Source of the DNA: Candidatus Thorarchaeota archaeon
GTDB taxonomy: Archaea; Asgardarchaeota; Thorarchaeia; Thorarchaeales; Thorarchaeaceae
Direction of reading: 5' to 3'
Assembly: GCA_003345555.1 (NCBI GenBank)
Contig: PRDJ01000075.1
Span: 1,100 to 33,099, forward strand
DNA length: 32,000 bases
Part shown: positions 10,202 through 31,508 of the stretch, piece by piece
Numbering within the stretch: the first letter of the stretch is position 1
Layout of the letters: every line of letters begins with the position of its first letter
The notes under the pieces: model-generated
What the model saw: the letters and a program-made list of their open reading frames with translations, nothing else
Databases searched by the model: none
Told to the model about the DNA's origin: nothing
Program-made: the position numbers and the translations under genes

Positions 10202-10819
10202 ATGACCGAACACGTACACGATCTCGCGTCATCGGATGTTCGCATAGATAACACCGGTTGGAAAAGTGGCGTCAGGGTTCTTGGGATTGCAGAAAGTTTC
10301 GAACAATCGGATAAGTCCAGCACCGTGGCTGGAGTCGTGATGCGAGGCGATATCAGAATTGACGGGTATGGATTCTGTCGTCCAACGATTGGCGGGTTGG
10401 ATGCCACCGACAGGCTAGCGTCCATGTATGAGTCGCTCCAAAGGCAGGATATCAGAGCTTGGATGCTTGGAGGGAGCGTGATTTCTTGGTTCAATGTTGT
10501 CGACCTGCAGGAGTTGCATGAGAGAACAGGGACACCTGTTGCGTGCGTATCCTATCGTCACTCTGAAGGCATCGAGAAGTACGTGAAAGAGTACTTCCCG
10601 GATGACTGGAAAAAGCGGATAGACGTGCTGGACCGAACAGGCGAACGAGTCCAGATACGCCTGAGCACGGGTTACCAAGTCTACCTCTCCGTTGCGGGAA
10701 TGACTGTCAATAGAGGACGTCGCTTGATTGACTTGTTCACTCTCGATGGTGCAATACCTGAGCCAATCAGAGCTGCGCGAATCCTAGCAGCATCAATACG
10801 ACATTCCGGCTCCTTCTAG
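10202..10819 (+). CDS. DUF99 family protein (endonuclease V-like fold)
   Basis: VLGIAESF, GVVMRGD..IDG, GLDAT, FNVVD and IPEPIRAA motifs. Confidence 0.85.
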   Translation: MTEHVHDLASSDVRIDNTGWKSGVRVLGIAESFEQSDKSSTVAGVVMRGDIRIDGYGFCRPTIGGLDATDRLASMYESLQRQDIRAWMLGGSVISWFNVVDLQELHERTGTPVACVSYRHSEGIEKYVKEYFPDDWKKRIDVLDRTGERVQIRLSTGYQVYLSVAGMTVNRGRRLIDLFTLDGAIPEPIRAARILAASIRHSGSF

Positions 10820-11436
10820 CGGCTCTTCTTAGGAGAACCTAGGCGCGTCTTGTGAAGTCTGAACAGTTCTGAGAAGAGCTCTTGGGCCAAATCCAAGTGG
10901 AGGCTATTGATTTCGCTCTCCACATGCTCAAAAAACCGTTCAAGGTTCTGCGGGGGAAAACCACGATTCTCCATACTCACCGCATGCGCCAGCATATCGA
11001 GCCGGTCAGAGGCAACGGCGATTTTGGCCTCAAGAGTGTCTGGCCCCTCGAATTCCTCCAAAGCCTTGCTTAAGGACTCACCCAGAGCTCCCAGCGGGGT
11101 CAGTATCTGTTTTGCCGCAACTCGCTCTGTCTCTTTCTTCGCTGATTTCATGGCAATTCCCCCCAGTTCAACGGCTCTGTAGGGAATATCCGAGACAATA
11201 GACTCGGGCAAGTCATGCAGAATTGCCATCGTCAACAGCCGCTCCAAGTCGACACTCTTCCCTTCGAATCTGAGTTGAAGCGCCAAAAGAAGGGCAATGA
11301 CAGAGGTTCCCCAGCAATGAGATGCAATCTTCTCACATCCTGAGTAGTCCTCTCCAGCAAGTATCCAACCCGTGCGCGGAAGCCGTTTGAGAGACTCCGA
11401 TTTCAGACAGAATTCAATAATGTCATCTGCGCTCAT
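10816..11436 (-). CDS. HD-domain hydrolase (YfbR/HDDC2-like 5'-deoxynucleotidase)
   Basis: LKRLPRTGW, ASH, LHDLPES, SDIP and DRLD motifs. Confidence 0.9.
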   Translation of the reverse strand: MSADDIIEFCLKSESLKRLPRTGWILAGEDYSGCEKIASHCWGTSVIALLLALQLRFEGKSVDLERLLTMAILHDLPESIVSDIPYRAVELGGIAMKSAKKETERVAAKQILTPLGALGESLSKALEEFEGPDTLEAKIAVASDRLDMLAHAVSMENRGFPPQNLERFFEHVESEINSLHLDLAQELFSELFRLHKTRLGSPKKSR

Positions 11437-11502
11437 ATGAAGACACCTCGGTGCTTCGTGACTTCAGAATGCTCTTGCTCGGTACCATGGCGGTCCTGCC
11501 GC

Positions 11503-12594
11503 TCATGGAGAAACTACGATGGTACCTGCAACGATTGCGTCCTTGTAGCTATGAATGATGTTCATAACGGAAGCTGGAATGTAGGTGGAACTGTAAGCAA
11601 ACGTCGTGACGTTGGCACCACCATTAGCAAGATTGTACTGGTAGTGATAACCAGAGGGGAATGTGTCCCAGAGTGTTGCATTGATTATTGTGTAGAACAC
11701 CCAGTCTGTGCGAGATACAACACTCGTGACAATCCAGCTCGGCGCGACTGGAATGAGAGGGTCAGCACATCCGTAGTAGTCCTGATCGCCTTCGGCAGCT
11801 ATCACAAGCGGCATCCTATCTTCGGAATAGAGGATTGTGCTGTTGGCGAATAGCATTCCTTCCCGCACGCCGACGATGCTGGCCCGGACTGGAGCGAACA
11901 ATACGGAGACCCCATCGTTGACAAACAAATGAAACGTGCTATTGCTCGCGGCGCTGGAGTCGTTGTAGCTCCCAATGAATTCAGTCGGCAAAAGCGTTAC
12001 ATTCAGCGCATAAGTCGAATTGGCCGCCACTACACCCTGCACGAAACCATTGACCAGACTGATCACGTCCGGGTCATCATCCATGGAAGCAAGTATCCCA
12101 ACTTTGCTTGTGTAGTTCTCTTGAGTCGAAAGTAGCGCGGCAAGAGCACCTGCTAAGAAAGCAGCCTGTTCGGATGCATATGATCCGGATGCCACGTTTA
12201 ACAAATCAACGAACCCCCCGATCATCCCGAATTTCTGGTTTGGGTAAGCAACTGCTGCATTGTGCACTGCCGTTGTTAGCTTTTGTCCAGCCGCCAGAAT
12301 GAGCTCATAATGGCCAGAGGATGCGAGGCTTTCCATCAGAGTCTCGGCCTCAGCTGATGTCTTTGGGTATGGATTTGCTATGTAGTACTGAACCGTGAAA
12401 TTCGCAGAGACTTCATTCATACCTATGCCGACTTGGTCGGCCATGCTGAGGTCATCGAAGCCCGGGTCCAATACCACAACTGCAATCTCAGGAGGCCTGT
12501 ATTGATTCGAGACAAATAGAAACGTACCCACAGAACCGAAGATGACAATGACAATCACTATCGAGGATATCAATGAGGTCGTTGAACTCGGCAC
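11503..12594 (-). CDS. BMP family (PrnA-like) substrate-binding protein with N-terminal membrane anchor
   Basis: N-terminal TM, GFDDLS, EQAAFLAGALAA, GFVQG and EGDQD; many N-x-S/T sequons. Confidence 0.85.
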   Translation of the reverse strand: MPSSTTSLISSIVIVIVIFGSVGTFLFVSNQYRPPEIAVVVLDPGFDDLSMADQVGIGMNEVSANFTVQYYIANPYPKTSAEAETLMESLASSGHYELILAAGQKLTTAVHNAAVAYPNQKFGMIGGFVDLLNVASGSYASEQAAFLAGALAALLSTQENYTSKVGILASMDDDPDVISLVNGFVQGVVAANSTYALNVTLLPTEFIGSYNDSSAASNSTFHLFVNDGVSVLFAPVRASIVGVREGMLFANSTILYSEDRMPLVIAAEGDQDYYGCADPLIPVAPSWIVTSVVSRTDWVFYTIINATLWDTFPSGYHYQYNLANGGANVTTFAYSSTYIPASVMNIIHSYKDAIVAGTIVVSP

Positions 12595-25988: not shown

Positions 25989-27533
25989 TCAATCCTGAGC
26001 AGCGAGTACCTGAGTATCGGTAGTGAGAGTCACTGGTTTGGCCTGGATGTGTGTTGCTCGAACGACATTCTCGAAGTACGATGATTTCATGAGCGTTAAT
26101 GTAGTCGGGCCGAGTGCGCCTGACTCCCTGACTATACGGAATTCCTCGCTGTCCGACATCAATGCCTCTTCAAGAGCTGTGAGAAACTCGACTGCATCGA
26201 TATTGTTGTTACCCAACATGAGAGCTAGCGTGTAATGCGGTATTCCGTTTTCAACCAAACCGACCATACAGTAGTCTGACACCTGAACGCCAGTCTTCAA
26301 GCAGGCTGCGGCCATGGCATTGGATACATGCTTGTCGGATAGCTTTTCGCCCGACATGTTGACAATCTTGCCTTTTCTACTGATTGATCGTATTGTGTAA
26401 GGATTGGTGTTTGTGAAGGTCAACATATCACCGAGTCGATACCTATAGCACCCTGTGTTATTCGTCAGAACCATCTCATACCTGAATCCCTTCCTGACCT
26501 CCGACAAGGGCACTACAGTGGGATTGAGAACTTCTACTTCACTCTCGGGGATGAACTCAAGGTAATTAAGACTCGGAAGCAGCTGAATTCCCGGTTCTTC
26601 GAAGAGCTGACCTCCATAGAAGCCCTCAGACCCTCCGTACATATCAAGAATCCTCGCAGTCGGCAGTGTCTTGCTGATCCATTCTCTGTAGGGGTCACAA
26701 TCTATTCCAGAAGTGGTAAGCAGCCGCAGATTAGGCCATAGGCCTTGTACGTCCATCATGCCTTCGTCGTTCACGAGCCGTCTGATTCTCTGTTCGTGCC
26801 GGGTTCCCTTCAAAGAGTCAAGCAACCATGGACCGTATTGAGTCTGCATCCTGCGGACAAGCGCTAGCAACAGTGTGCTTATGCCCAGCAAGCCCGTCAC
26901 GTTGGTTGTTGCAAGAAGATTGGCATAACGTTTCATCTTCTCATCAACGTCAGTTATGTTGAATACATCCTCTCCGGGTTTCATCAGTCTCTTGAGAAGC
27001 GGATTGAAGCGTCTAATCATTGCACCTGTAGCATATCCTACGGGGATTCCATTAATGTGATCGATAACGGCTGGCGCGCCCAGTGTTACGAGGGTACCGT
27101 CGAATATCTTGGCATTGTCTGAATCAGCATTGACAAATGCCAACCACACAAGCATCGTTCCTTTCGAAGTGTCCTCAGCTCCACTCTCCGTCAAGGGAAT
27201 GTACTTCGGCTTTCCTGTCGTTCCTGAAGTCTTCAGATACCATATTACCGGGTCGGCAGTCAACACTTGTCCGTTCGGATTGTCGTACGTCATCTTCAGG
27301 TACGGTTCCATGCCATGGTAGTCGAAGAGCGGGACATTGGACGAATACTCTTCCGAGTTCCTTATGGATTCAAAGTCGTATCTCTTACCAAAAACAGTAC
27401 CTTTGTGACGTGCGAGCACGGACATGAGCTTCTCTTCTGTAAGCTCAATGGGGTTGCTCAGAATATGCTCTACTTCCTTGGCCTTTCTTCTGGCCATCAA
27501 TGAAACAAGCCGTCTCATGATTGACATCTGCAT
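25989..27533 (-). CDS. GH3 family acyl-adenylate-forming enzyme
   Basis: TVFGKRYDF, VPLFDY, TSGTTGKPKYIP, YGGSEG, RYRLGD and GEKL. Confidence 0.92.
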   Translation of the reverse strand: MQMSIMRRLVSLMARRKAKEVEHILSNPIELTEEKLMSVLARHKGTVFGKRYDFESIRNSEEYSSNVPLFDYHGMEPYLKMTYDNPNGQVLTADPVIWYLKTSGTTGKPKYIPLTESGAEDTSKGTMLVWLAFVNADSDNAKIFDGTLVTLGAPAVIDHINGIPVGYATGAMIRRFNPLLKRLMKPGEDVFNITDVDEKMKRYANLLATTNVTGLLGISTLLLALVRRMQTQYGPWLLDSLKGTRHEQRIRRLVNDEGMMDVQGLWPNLRLLTTSGIDCDPYREWISKTLPTARILDMYGGSEGFYGGQLFEEPGIQLLPSLNYLEFIPESEVEVLNPTVVPLSEVRKGFRYEMVLTNNTGCYRYRLGDMLTFTNTNPYTIRSISRKGKIVNMSGEKLSDKHVSNAMAAACLKTGVQVSDYCMVGLVENGIPHYTLALMLGNNNIDAVEFLTALEEALMSDSEEFRIVRESGALGPTTLTLMKSSYFENVVRATHIQAKPVTLTTDTQVLAAQD

Positions 27534-28142: not shown

Positions 28143-28892
28143 ATGATCGCCAAGATAGAGGCGCAGCTGTTGTCGGCAAGCGCTGTTCGTAGAAATAACA
28201 TCGGCACTGTGGATGTCACTGGCCCACTCCAAGTGATATTCAACAACGGTGACCGCTGTATCGTCAATGCAAAGCTCCGATATCATGGCCCCGAGAGCAG
28301 CTCATGGTTAGCACTTGTGGTGGGCCTAAGGAGCCGGATCCTCTCTCCGTTCAGCAGGTTTGAAAACGGAAGAGACCGATACATTCCCTGCGACATCCCC
28401 GGCTTGGTTCCCGCTCTAGCGCTCACTCTGGCGCATCAAGATTGTGGACTCGCAGTGAGCGCCATAGCGCACGACGCATTCACTCACCTAGTCCTTGTAT
28501 TTGAAGGAGATGTAGCTGCCAAGGGCGGCAATCTCAGATCACTTGCCGCTTCGGTATGGACTTTCATGAAAAGGTGGACCGACTGGACCGATGTTCTGCT
28601 GGCCACCGCTTCGCACGACCCATCGGCGGCTAAATGGAACTTAGACTGGCGAGAATTCCTTGCAGGCGAATCCGGATTTGTAACCATGCCTTGGTTCAGA
28701 CCCATGAACTACCTCGACCGAGCCCTTAGTCTGGAGAGAATTGTTGCGGCCTCCAAATCGCTCTTGGCTTCTGTTCTGAACCAAGCTCAGATGGAGGATC
28801 CCCGGATTCGGACACTCACTTCCTGGCTAGACCAGCTGGCACCCCTTTCAGAGGTCGTCGGTGGAATGGAAGCAGCGGAGGCTGAAGTTTAG
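28143..28892 (+). CDS. Hypothetical protein, gene 1 of the RadA/XPD operon
   Basis: 249-aa globular-looking ORF; next gene starts 1 nt after its stop. Confidence 0.8.
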   Translation: MIAKIEAQLLSASAVRRNNIGTVDVTGPLQVIFNNGDRCIVNAKLRYHGPESSSWLALVVGLRSRILSPFSRFENGRDRYIPCDIPGLVPALALTLAHQDCGLAVSAIAHDAFTHLVLVFEGDVAAKGGNLRSLAASVWTFMKRWTDWTDVLLATASHDPSAAKWNLDWREFLAGESGFVTMPWFRPMNYLDRALSLERIVAASKSLLASVLNQAQMEDPRIRTLTSWLDQLAPLSEVVGGMEAAEAEV

Positions 28893-28893
28893 T

Positions 28894-29361
28894 ATGATGT
28901 GTAACGATCTATGTCGAAGCTTTTCGAGGTTGACTGTGGAAATCATGGGACCTTCGTGGATAGCCGGTGCTGTGACAGGCATTAGAGCTTCCACAAGGCG
29001 AGAATCGGATTGGATTTGGGACCGATTCATCGAGGAACTCTATGACGCCGCCGAAAGGCTAGGAGACATTCAACCAGCTGAGCCAGCAACCTCACTGGCA
29101 GATGAATATGGCTTCGCGGGTTCAGCATACGACACTCTCGGGGGTTATGTCAGCACAGCAGGTGAAGTCCGTTCTCAGGGATTGTACTTCAGTGTCTCTC
29201 CGGAACAGTTGGAGAACGTCATAAGACTGCTTCCGGATTTCACAGTGCTCAGGGCAAAGGGCGGCCTCATTGTACCACGTTACGAACTGGGTTCTTTCTT
29301 GAATCTCGTACCTGTGAACGGACCATTGTTGGATCAGCTGACGGAGGGGAGCTTGCAGTGA
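28894..29361 (+). CDS. Hypothetical protein, gene 2 of the RadA/XPD operon
   Basis: ATG 28894 follows TAG 28892; GTGA overlap with the radA-like gene; ORF extends to 28861. Confidence 0.75.
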   Translation: MMCNDLCRSFSRLTVEIMGPSWIAGAVTGIRASTRRESDWIWDRFIEELYDAAERLGDIQPAEPATSLADEYGFAGSAYDTLGGYVSTAGEVRSQGLYFSVSPEQLENVIRLLPDFTVLRAKGGLIVPRYELGSFLNLVPVNGPLLDQLTEGSLQ

Positions 29362-30434
29362 CAGAGCTTGAGGCAGTGACAGGTGTCGGACCCGCAGTGG
29401 CGAAGAAACTCCGAGAGGTGTTTGTGACGACTGCGGAGCTTCTCGCTGTTCAGAACCATGTGGACCTGCAGAACAGGACCAAACTTGGAGAAGGCACCGC
29501 TCTAAAAATCATACGGAATGCTAGACAACTTGTAGGGCTTTGTGGTTTCAAGTCGGGTCTCGAAATGGAGCAAGAGATGGCAGGTAAGCCCCGCCTTAGC
29601 ACTGGCATAGATAGAGCCAATGCAGCACTCCTCGGTGGTATAGAGACAGGCTCGGTAGTAGAATTCTACGGTGCTGCACGAAGCGGAAAGACGCAATGGT
29701 GTGGTCAGCTAGCTGTCATGGTTCAGCTGCCTCTGGAAAAGGGAGGGCTTGAAGGTCGAGTGCTCTGGCTGGATACAGAAAATTCCTTCAAACCATGGAT
29801 CATTAGAGCGGACGCAGTCCGGTTTGGATTGGACCCGGACGTTGCCCTCGGGAACATTGGCCACGCTCACATCGTAATGACTGAACAGATGACACAGCTC
29901 TTCGAGAACATACCGCAACTCTGTGCGGAGGAAGACTACAAGCTCGTGGTTATTGATTCATTGACCGGGCTTTTCAGGGCCGAATACACAGGACTTGAGC
30001 TCCTAAGAGTAAGACAGCAGGAGATGAATGGCCTTCTCAACCTGATGAGACGTACTGCGACCGCAACTGGAACAATCTTCTGCTACACCAATCAGGTCAT
30101 GTCTAGCATGGGGACATTCAAGTCCAATCCCAACTCTCCAGTCGGAGGACACATCATCTCACACGCCTCCGATTATCGATTCTATGTAAAGAAGAAGCTA
30201 AAGGATGTCAGGGGCCTTCAGCTCCAGGACAACGCAGGTATACCTGAGTTTGACATTGATGTAGTGATCGGATGGGGCGGCTTCTACACAGATGCGAAAA
30301 CGAAGAAGAAAGTCGAGGCGGATGTTCTGGAGTACTTCAGAAAGACCGGTTGGAATCCCGAGATGACAGAGGGTCATGAGGAGCCTGGAGAAACGAAGGG
30401 AGAAACCGAGGAGATTGTGGAGGAAAGCGATTAG
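29358..30434 (+). CDS. Divergent RadA/Rad51-family recombinase paralog with N-terminal HhH domain and acidic tail
   Basis: GVGPAVAKKL HhH, Walker A GAARSGKT, QLP..KGGL, LDTE, Walker B VVIDS, FRAEY, RQQ, TNQV and PVGGH. Confidence 0.92.
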   Translation: MTELEAVTGVGPAVAKKLREVFVTTAELLAVQNHVDLQNRTKLGEGTALKIIRNARQLVGLCGFKSGLEMEQEMAGKPRLSTGIDRANAALLGGIETGSVVEFYGAARSGKTQWCGQLAVMVQLPLEKGGLEGRVLWLDTENSFKPWIIRADAVRFGLDPDVALGNIGHAHIVMTEQMTQLFENIPQLCAEEDYKLVVIDSLTGLFRAEYTGLELLRVRQQEMNGLLNLMRRTATATGTIFCYTNQVMSSMGTFKSNPNSPVGGHIISHASDYRFYVKKKLKDVRGLQLQDNAGIPEFDIDVVIGWGGFYTDAKTKKKVEADVLEYFRKTGWNPEMTEGHEEPGETKGETEEIVEESD

Positions 30435-30880
30435 TGCTCACCAAAGAGAGAGGCATGTTCCGCATCTACGAGTGTCCCCGTTGCAGGAACATCGGTTTCG
30501 CACAAGTCGAAAGCGAGGAGTGCGTTTCGCGATGTAGCTTGTGCCAAGGTCCCATCGCACATGCCCCCGCGATGCAATATGCTGCAACCATTCAGGAAGC
30601 AGAATCCTGTGTCAGAGAGGCCGTGGTCGGAACTAAACTGAAACCAAAATCATCAGGAAGTTCGAGGACCATAGGGCTGAAGAAACGGGTATTGAACATA
30701 GTTGAAGCTCTGGTTGATATGAACAAGGGACGCCCCGTCAGCCTCAAGGACATTCTTCGCGAATGCACAGACGCAGGTATTGACAAGGACAGGGCAATGG
30801 ATTTCATCGAGGCTCTTCTCGGCGAGGGGATTCTCTCAGGCGACGACCTCGGTATGAGACCTTCTGGGAGGCCTTCGTGA
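30434..30880 (+). CDS. Zn-ribbon plus C-terminal winged-helix protein
   Basis: CPRC...CSLC, basic linker, then helical ILRECTDAGIDKDRAMDFIEALLGEGIL; alternative start ATG 30455. Confidence 0.75.
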   Translation: MLTKERGMFRIYECPRCRNIGFAQVESEECVSRCSLCQGPIAHAPAMQYAATIQEAESCVREAVVGTKLKPKSSGSSRTIGLKKRVLNIVEALVDMNKGRPVSLKDILRECTDAGIDKDRAMDFIEALLGEGILSGDDLGMRPSGRPS

Positions 30881-30881
30881 C

Positions 30882-31508
30882 GTGCCCGATACTGAGGTTA
30901 CACCCACATCTATCTGGAATCAGCCCGTGTCGGCAAGTGTTGGTGGTAGCTCTCTCATAAACCTGGCCAACTTGCTTCTTAGAGAGACGAGTACCAGGAT
31001 CACAACGCTTCAACGATGCGAGGGTCCGGACCCAGAACTCTTTGTGGTCTCACGACTAGAATGGAGAGATTCGGATCCGAGGAAACCTGTGCTTCCGCAA
31101 ATGCCTAGAATTCTCTCTCTCCTCGAGACACTCCGTGAAAGCAAGGGTGTGCCTCACGAGATATACTTGGACAGCAACGATGGCATTGCAGTGTACCTTC
31201 CCACAGGAACCAGAATCTCGGACCTGCCCCGGAATTCAAAGGAAGCCATCCGGATTCTCATGGCTCTCGCACGTGACACCGTTGCAAATGTGCTCTCGAC
31301 GATGCATGAAGTGGAGAATTGCTTCTGGATGGCCGCTCGTCGAAAGGGTTTCAGTCCTGAGATTGTAGAGAGGATGGCACTAAAAGAACAGCATTATGAC
31401 TCACCTGGAATCCTCAGGGAATTCCACGGCATCTTGAGGAAGTATTTCTCAATTCGTTTCCACATTCAGAGAAGCGAGTCATGTCTCTACGTCGAGGAGG
31501 AAGTCTGA
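30882..31508 (+). CDS. Hypothetical protein, gene 5 of the RadA/XPD operon
   Basis: 208-aa ORF starting 1 nt after the previous stop; TGATG overlap with the helicase gene. Confidence 0.8.
   Translation: MPDTEVTPTSIWNQPVSASVGGSSLINLANLLLRETSTRITTLQRCEGPDPELFVVSRLEWRDSDPRKPVLPQMPRILSLLETLRESKGVPHEIYLDSNDGIAVYLPTGTRISDLPRNSKEAIRILMALARDTVANVLSTMHEVENCFWMAARRKGFSPEIVERMALKEQHYDSPGILREFHGILRKYFSIRFHIQRSESCLYVEEEV

Follow-up and report, generated by a model that had tools for sequence, protein, structure and literature searches.

We analysed a window of 32,000 nucleotides from Candidatus Thorarchaeota archaeon (family Thorarchaeaceae of the Asgard archaea; GenBank assembly GCA_003345555.1, contig PRDJ01000075.1, positions 1,100 to 33,099 of the forward strand), which carries the gene of a divergent RadA paralog that we call RadA2. 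Our results suggest that RadA2 is a constrained, order-specific second full-length RadA-family ATPase that would form the RecA-type core of a distinct DNA transaction encoded by its own operon, a reading to which we assign a probability of about 0.6. The evidence comes from the residues that are kept and replaced across the RadA2 family, from its distribution and phylogeny, and above all from an operon of about 15 genes, which is the main clue to the role of RadA2.

RadA2 as a second full-length RadA

The gene encodes 358 amino acids (Table 1) and starts with GTG; a same-genus ortholog of equal length has ATG at the same position. An earlier note, made from the letters of the window alone, had read this open reading frame (ORF) as a filament-type RadA rather than a truncated paralog of the RadB or RadC kind. 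The frame was borne out, and every string quoted from it was recovered in place, namely GFKSG (F64-G67), the Walker A sequence GAARSGKT (residues 105-112), FKPWII (144-149) and the L2 sequence MSSMGTFKSNP (248-258). The Pfam Rad51 model matched the core with E = 2.4e-54, a sequence match that is far beyond chance, and HHH_5 matched residues 3-56 slightly below its cutoff (E = 1.7e-5). The N-domain aligns residue for residue with that of Pyrococcus furiosus RadA (PDB 1pzn), which is also the closest solved structure to the whole protein (8e-56). The architecture of RadA, an N-terminal helix-hairpin-helix (HhH) domain and a RecA-type core with Walker A, Walker B and the catalytic Glu, is present.

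Among curated families, the NCBIfam RadA equivalog models cover the full length of RadA2 with scores below cutoff (NF003301, 254 against 259 bits; TIGR02236, 231 against 361 bits), and the eukaryotic models gave 197 bits for RAD51 (TIGR02239, cutoff 478) and 192 bits for DMC1 (TIGR02238, cutoff 448). On the RadB model, RadA2 reached 58 bits against a cutoff of 172. RadB and aRadC are RecA-core paralogs that likewise coexist with RadA, as in the window genome and in the operon described below, but they measure about 220-260 amino acids and have neither the HhH N-domain nor the polymerisation motif, both of which are present in RadA2. Together, the HhH N-domain, the polymerisation Phe and the RecA core support the view that RadA2 is a second full-length RadA and no RadB/aRadC-type truncation, in agreement with the earlier note. 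This distinction is hidden by current annotation, in which the proteins of the operon appear merely as RadA, AAA ATPase or hypothetical.

Conserved and replaced residues

We counted residues in an alignment of 119 RadA2 family members, 16 canonical Asgard RadAs, 21 other archaeal RadAs and nine eukaryotic Rad51/Dmc1 sequences. Invariant or nearly invariant in RadA2 are F64 of the polymerisation motif, K111 (119/119) and T112 (118/119) of Walker A, D139 and E141 of the catalytic segment (both 119/119), D200 of Walker B, the sensor residues N245 (119/119) and Q246 (115/119), G263-G264-H265, H269, R274 and the ATP-cap residue D291. D272 and a GWGGFY signature are specific to the family, in which dozens of family-specific positions are invariant. 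Canonical archaeal RadA (P. furiosus 1pzn, Methanococcus voltae) thus has in common with RadA2 the HhH domain, the linker Phe, the RecA core, the Walker A Lys/Thr, the catalytic Glu, the Walker B Asp, the Gln sensor, the trans-acting His and the ATP-cap Asp.

In contrast to canonical RadA, RadA2 carries FxxG, GPARGGKT, FKPW(V/I/T), Leu/Ile in L1, Ile in L2, GWGGFY, a helix plus acidic tail of about 48 residues, and a dedicated operon. The Phe of the polymerisation motif was found in 118/119 members, and the last position of the motif is Gly in 112 and Ala in seven, whereas all 16 canonical Asgard RadAs have Ala there. The Glu-Phe of the canonical P-loop, GEF(R/G)(T/S)GKT, is replaced by Pro/Ala-Ala throughout the family; the Phe of this pair links the ATP site with L2. 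The canonical FRPER segment, which helps form the pocket for the polymerisation motif, has become FKPW(V/I/T) with a newly invariant R150, and co-variation of FxxG/FxxA with the FKPW segment, which we sought within the family, showed no clear pattern. Position 148, at the second Arg of FRPER, is mainly Val, Ile or Thr, and Arg/Lys are not among its commonest residues; in P. furiosus RadA the nucleoside stacks against this Arg (R181; PMC4856416).

Within L1, position 213 is Leu in 106 and Ile in 13 members, which makes 119/119, and the Arg conserved at this site is present in 15/16 canonical Asgard RadAs, in 20/21 RadAs of other archaea and in 8/9 sequences from eukaryotes. By a count along the pairwise alignment, the position corresponds to R235 of human RAD51, whose R235D variant still forms filaments and is markedly defective in DNA binding (PMC10990931). 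The L2 loop has the same length as in RadA and is conserved within the family, and the Pro found in 16/16 canonical Asgard and 21/21 other archaeal RadAs is replaced by Ile in 107/119 members and by Met in the window protein. The latter departs slightly from the family consensus, with GAARSGKT for GPARGGKT in Walker A and MSSMGTFKSNP for MAKISTYGGNPNAP in L2. The positions that the earlier note had singled out in Walker A, FRPER and L2 are divergent family-wide (n = 119). Because of this pattern of kept and replaced residues, we consider the base- and DNA-contact elements to have been rebuilt, with conservation of the phosphate-binding/catalytic half and of the oligomerisation Phe. An intact ATPase and polymerisation Phe together with replaced DNA- and base-contact residues represent a natural experiment on which RadA features serve what.

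C-terminal extension

Past GWGGFY, the window RadA2 continues for 48 residues and closes with the acidic string that the earlier note had quoted. Across the family the tails comprise 33-91 residues (median 48) with a median net charge of -9, and among the final 20 residues of 107/119 members at least six are acidic; canonical Asgard RadAs stop 2-4 residues past the equivalent point. The proximal part is a conserved, helix-like motif (roughly KKxxEPxILEYFEKRG), and the distal part is variable in sequence yet consistently acidic. The helix-like motif and the acidic stretch define the RadA2 family, so that the acidic tail seen in the earlier note is real and shared by the family as a whole. A reading of the proximal motif as a PCNA-interacting protein (PIP) box was rejected: the pattern [ILVM]xx[FY][FYLIM] occurs in only 82/119 tails and is therefore no family-wide feature. 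Escherichia coli RecA has a short acidic, autoregulatory C-terminal tail, which resembles that of RadA2 by functional analogy and not by homology; in RadA2 the acidic stretch is preceded by the conserved helix-like motif.

Distribution and selection

The window genome (2.28 Mb, 82 contigs, 93% complete) also encodes the canonical RadA whose presence the earlier note had left to be checked. It lies on contig C6, has 313 amino acids, scores 474 bits on NF003301 (RadA2: 254) and is 37% identical to RadA2. Short RecA-like genes are found on C26, C73 and C37. We sampled 201 genomes across the Asgard phylum, including 43 from the window's family besides its own genome. Orthologs of RadA2 (at least 52% identity) were present in 37/43 family genomes (Thorarchaeota by NCBI names) and in no other family of this sample. 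The single sampled genome of a sister family in the same order gave a 48% match, and all other Asgard families sampled gave 41% identity at most, the level of canonical RadA. Of the 37 genomes with RadA2, 34 also gave a canonical-level match. When 5.8 billion proteins were searched with RadA2, 339 matched at E <= 1e-20; among the best 120 of the 339, identity to RadA2 is 54-89%, lengths are mostly 340-400 amino acids, and the named sequences are nearly all Candidatus Thorarchaeota.

Comparison of the window RadA2 with its same-genus ortholog in genome G152 gave pN = 0.051 and pS = 0.675, from which dN/dS is about 0.03; dS is close to saturation. The reading frame is intact in every family genome where RadA2 was found, and sequence identity tracks taxonomy. 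Such patterns, read from sequence, indicate that RadA2 is a real, vertically inherited and strongly constrained gene, specific to the Asgard order that holds the window genome. An order-wide second full-length RadA would show that duplication and specialisation of recombinases arose independently in Asgard lineages. In four genomes, a single contig carries both canonical radA and radA2 (G152:C3, G075:C1, G124:C4 and G005:C63), 34-79 kb apart, and the two loci are therefore loosely linked.

Phylogeny and other Asgard paralogs

A tree was built with IQ-TREE (LG+C20+F+G4 by posterior mean site frequency, PMSF; 89 rows, 320 columns, RadB outgroup), and its clades were labelled by NCBIfam scores and source names. 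The thorarchaeal RadA2 clade has a support of 99/97, rising to 100/99 with the sister-family form. Both belong to a superclade of 33 rows (100/99) together with second paralogs of Jordarchaeales and of one more family, an unnamed sequence and Odinarchaeota RadA; sampled genomes of the family taken to be Odinarchaeia each have one RadA-level match. Thorarchaeal canonical RadA falls within the canonical Asgard clade (98/92), and eukaryotic Rad51/Dmc1 form a clade of their own (100/97) that excludes RadA2. Deep branching is left without resolution in the backbone of the tree.

Constraining RadA2 to group with thorarchaeal canonical RadA changed the log-likelihood by -89.7 units (approximately unbiased, AU, test, p = 0.00015), which rejects a recent Thorarchaeota-specific duplication of canonical RadA. 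The outcome that the earlier note had named as contradicting it, a sole radA that branches with the canonical RadA of its lineage, did not occur: the genome has a canonical RadA as well, and RadA2 branches apart from it. Constraining the RadA2 superclade to group with the eukaryotic sequences cost 13.8 log-likelihood units (AU p = 0.23), a grouping that the test does not reject, and the superclade (Thorarchaeota, Jordarchaeales, one further family and Odinarchaeota) could be sister to eukaryotic Rad51/Dmc1. Because the superclade is made of long branches, long-branch attraction is possible. RadA2 may be an old Asgard paralog, or it may stem from a duplication early in the order after which it diverged rapidly.

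The comparison of RadA2 with Dmc1 beside Rad51, drawn in the earlier note, holds insofar as both are second full-length recombinase-family paralogs alongside a general one. It stands as an analogy only, given that RadA2 is unrelated to the Rad51/Dmc1 split and has lost the L1 Arg, whereas in Dmc1 both the L1 Arg and the canonical P-loop are retained. The separate eukaryotic clade and the DMC1 score (192 against 448 bits) indicate that Dmc1 is not an ortholog of RadA2.

Between two and six full-length RadA paralogs per genome were found in ten Asgard genomes examined. A second RadA clade has been described in Heimdall-, Gerd-, Njord- and Lokiarchaea (Matsuo et al. 2025, PMC12722695), whose members are, like RadA2, full-length Asgard paralogs outside the eukaryotic Rad51/Dmc1 clade; the genome set of that study included Thorarchaeia, and its text describes no thorarchaeal paralog. 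In our tree, extra paralogs of four other Asgard families form clades separate from RadA2. Genomes of other Asgard families (G026, G139, G147, G054 and G038; loci L026-L048) carry 3-6 full-length RadA-like genes each, in at least four paralog clades, a paralogy richer than the two RadA clades of that paper (PMC12722695). Full-text literature searches turned up no paper describing the RadA2 family or its operon.

In one genus of the window's family (G027), a third RadA2-like gene, "RadA3", shares about 40% identity with RadA2 and is placed inside the RadA2 clade. There (L063:7704-8624 and 10647-12176, both on the minus strand), RadA3 adjoins a copy of the GH3-family gene described below, and the RadA2 locus shows short fragmentary GH3 matches alone, which suggests a local rearrangement or duplication.

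A conserved operon of divergent repair paralogs and membrane proteins

RadA2 is gene 3 of a conserved operon of about 15 tightly packed genes on the same strand. In order, these are orfA, orfB, RadA2, a Zn-ribbon/winged-helix protein, orfE, the helicase XPD2, orfH with two predicted transmembrane (TM) segments and a small ORF, followed by a 784-aa 2-TM protein, a Hel308-like helicase (736 aa), a 488-aa 2-TM protein, a RecA-like ATPase (237 aa), a 5-TM protein (305 aa), a RadB-like ATPase (243 aa) and a FEN1-like nuclease (329 aa). On long contigs, a convergent gene closes the operon past the nuclease. The end of orfB runs 4 nt into the start of RadA2, and the stop of RadA2 in turn overlaps the start of gene 4. 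We read the full string in two family genomes (G075 and G152), and the distal genes in G112 and in the window genome, at the end of contig C37. The order from orfA to orfH is kept in 11 family genomes, in three of which orfB was undetected by tblastn; the sister family keeps the order from RadA2 onward, and the distal genes are present there too. Outside the order, RadA2-like genes, those of Jordarchaeales included, do not have these neighbours. Nucleotide composition is uniform across the window.

All recognisable enzymes of the operon are divergent paralogs that score below curated cutoffs. The full-length ortholog of XPD2 reached 164 bits on the rad3 model (cutoff 247), compared with 289 bits for the canonical XPD of the genome; the Hel308-like helicase scored 278 against 1200, the FEN1-like nuclease 111 against 352 (archaeal FEN1), and the two RadB-like proteins 31 and 46 against 172. 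A simple hydropathy scan gave two hydrophobic segments each in orfH, the 784-aa and the 488-aa proteins, and five in the 305-aa protein. PADLOC returned no defence-system match for RadA2 or the orphan proteins, bar a marginal LmuB match of the Zn-ribbon/winged-helix protein (E = 6.5e-4), and the DinG match of the operon helicase is nonspecific because canonical XPD equals or beats its score. The fixed place of RadA2 among shadow repair paralogs and membrane proteins points to an undescribed DNA-processing pathway.

Proposed role and alternatives

RadA2 keeps all residues needed for ATP binding and hydrolysis, as well as the Phe by which one subunit docks into the next, and it would self-assemble into rings or filaments. 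Its handling of DNA and nucleotide would be unlike that of canonical RadA, and it would act as the RecA-type core of the separate, operon-encoded DNA transaction, possibly at the membrane, rather than as a back-up for general homologous recombination. Judging from the analogous acidic tail of E. coli RecA, that of RadA2 may be autoinhibitory or dock a partner. Several points weigh against this proposal. Oligomerisation is predicted from a single conserved Phe, and self-assembly could be altered or lost altogether through the Ala-to-Gly change in the motif and the changes in FRPER. Without the L1 Arg, RadA2 is less likely to bind DNA in the classical way, the link to the membrane comes from the hydropathy scan, and four of the partners (orfA, orfB, orfE and the 784-aa protein) are orphans. 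Furthermore, the window's own assembly lacks about 6.5 kb from the middle of the operon, which the queries tried did not find.

A different possibility, which we consider less likely, is that RadA2 is a specialised strand-exchange recombinase that forms presynaptic filaments on single-stranded DNA and performs homologous pairing for a particular substrate or condition. Its full RadA architecture, the conserved ATPase residues, Gln sensor, trans-acting His and ATP-cap Asp, and an L2 loop of unchanged length conserved in the family would suit such an enzyme, for which the operon offers two helicases, a flap nuclease and, as potential mediators, a pair of short RecA-like proteins. However, since the L1 Arg, the nucleoside-stacking Arg and the P-loop Glu-Phe are lost, classical strand exchange by RadA2 is uncertain and, in our view, doubtful; the L1 site is Leu/Ile in all 119 members and corresponds to R235 of human RAD51, where R235D causes a marked defect in DNA binding (PMC10990931), and RadA2 is phylogenetically unrelated to the Rad51/Dmc1 split. 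A polymerisation Phe kept beside lost DNA-contact residues is also what might be expected of a mediator or regulator of canonical RadA, in the style of Rad55-Rad57 or of filament-capping Rad51 paralogs, which would co-polymerise with it or cap it via FxxG, and canonical RadA does co-occur in 34/37 RadA2-bearing genomes. We consider this unlikely, as the known archaeal mediators (RadB and aRadC) lack the N-domain and the motif, two RadB-like proteins are already encoded in the operon, and RadA2 is tied to its own operon, with canonical radA 34-79 kb off in four genomes.

The proposal of an operon-encoded DNA transaction might be taken further, with RadA2 as the DNA-pairing or DNA-coating core of a Thorarchaeia-specific, membrane-anchored machine for DNA transfer and recombination that couples DNA uptake or export across the membrane to processing by its own recombinase, mediators, helicases and nuclease. 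This is a speculative extension and rather improbable; if true, it would provide an archaeal counterpart of a transformation-dedicated RecA pathway or of Ced-type DNA import. That RadA2 belongs to a mobile element, a virus or a defence island is very unlikely: the operon does hold divergent paralogs and many orphan proteins, and its helicases match PADLOC helicase models, but the chromosomal neighbourhood, with GH3 upstream, is the same in most family genera sampled, identity tracks taxonomy, the composition of the window is uniform, RadA2 and the orphans have no PADLOC match, and the DinG match is nonspecific, with canonical XPD scoring higher. We give almost no credence to RadA2 as a decaying or redundant duplicate; its scores below the RadA equivalog cutoffs would fit, but the low dN/dS, the family-specific invariant positions and the intact frames contradict it.

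Features of the window and operon partners

Table 1 Features of the RadA2 locus, in window coordinates.
Feature	Coordinates	Strand	Evidence
orfA (249 aa), operon gene 1	28143..28892	+	syntenic in 11 family genomes
orfB (about 166 aa), operon gene 2	28861..29361	+	tblastn in 8/11 family loci
RadA2 coding sequence (358 aa + stop), divergent full-length RadA paralog	29358..30434	+	ORF, Pfam/NCBIfam matches
N-terminal HhH domain, residues 1-60	29358..29537	+	HHH_5; alignment with P. furiosus RadA 1pzn
Polymerisation motif F64-K-S-G67 (FxxG replacing FxxA)	29547..29558	+	family alignment
Walker A G105-T112 (GAARSGKT; consensus GPARGGKT)	29670..29693	+	family alignment
D139-T-E141 catalytic segment and FKPWIIR (canonical FRPER)	29772..29807	+	family alignment
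L1 region F206-Q220, Leu213 at conserved L1 Arg site	29973..30017	+	family alignment; human RAD51 alignment
N245-Q246 sensor and L2 loop to G263-G264-H265	30090..30152	+	family alignment
C-terminal extension, residues 311-358: conserved proximal helix-like motif, then acidic tail	30288..30431	+	family alignment
Zn-ribbon + winged-helix protein (148 aa), operon gene 4	30434..30880	+	invariant CxxC...CxxC
orfE (208 aa), operon gene 5	30882..31508	+	syntenic in 12 genomes
XPD2 N-terminal part, divergent XPD/Rad3-family helicase, cut by contig end	31481..32000	+	profile matches

We found no match for orfA and orfE in Pfam, NCBIfam or PADLOC, nor for orfA in the protein atlas, and none for the 784-aa membrane protein in Pfam, NCBIfam, PADLOC or PDB sequences. 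AlphaFold2 models of orfA and orfE had a predicted local distance difference test (pLDDT) score of 87 and 80, respectively. No Foldseek match to these models was obtained at E <= 0.001, and the best VIA matches (Z 5.1 and 5.0) were at noise level; small domains resembling type III secretion chaperones or YbjN recurred as weak fold matches. For the Zn-ribbon/winged-helix protein, weak matches to the C-terminal winged helix of MCM were obtained (PDB 2m45, E = 0.015; Atlas structural match). The full-length ortholog of XPD2 has 641 amino acids and comprises DEAD_2, HBB and Helicase_C_2.

Divergently upstream of the operon lies a gene of a GH3-family acyl-acid amido synthetase (window 25989-27533, minus strand), a placement kept in most family genomes; it has no obvious functional link to the operon. 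In a small closed genome that is probably of Odinarchaeia (G001, L064:7710-13436), the only RadA-level match lies within about 5 kb, on the same strand, of a RadB-like gene and an XPD-family helicase, and the canonical XPD of the window genome adjoins a RadB-like gene on C26. Linkage between RecA-family and XPD genes seems to recur among Asgard archaea. Lastly, the XPD2 and Hel308-like helicases of G152 are each split into two overlapping ORFs in different frames (L013:8103-10059 and L065:3750-5964); in the other loci checked each is one continuous frame, for example XPD2 in G103 and G075 and the Hel308-like helicase in G075, and the split ORFs are likely assembly indel errors rather than real split genes.

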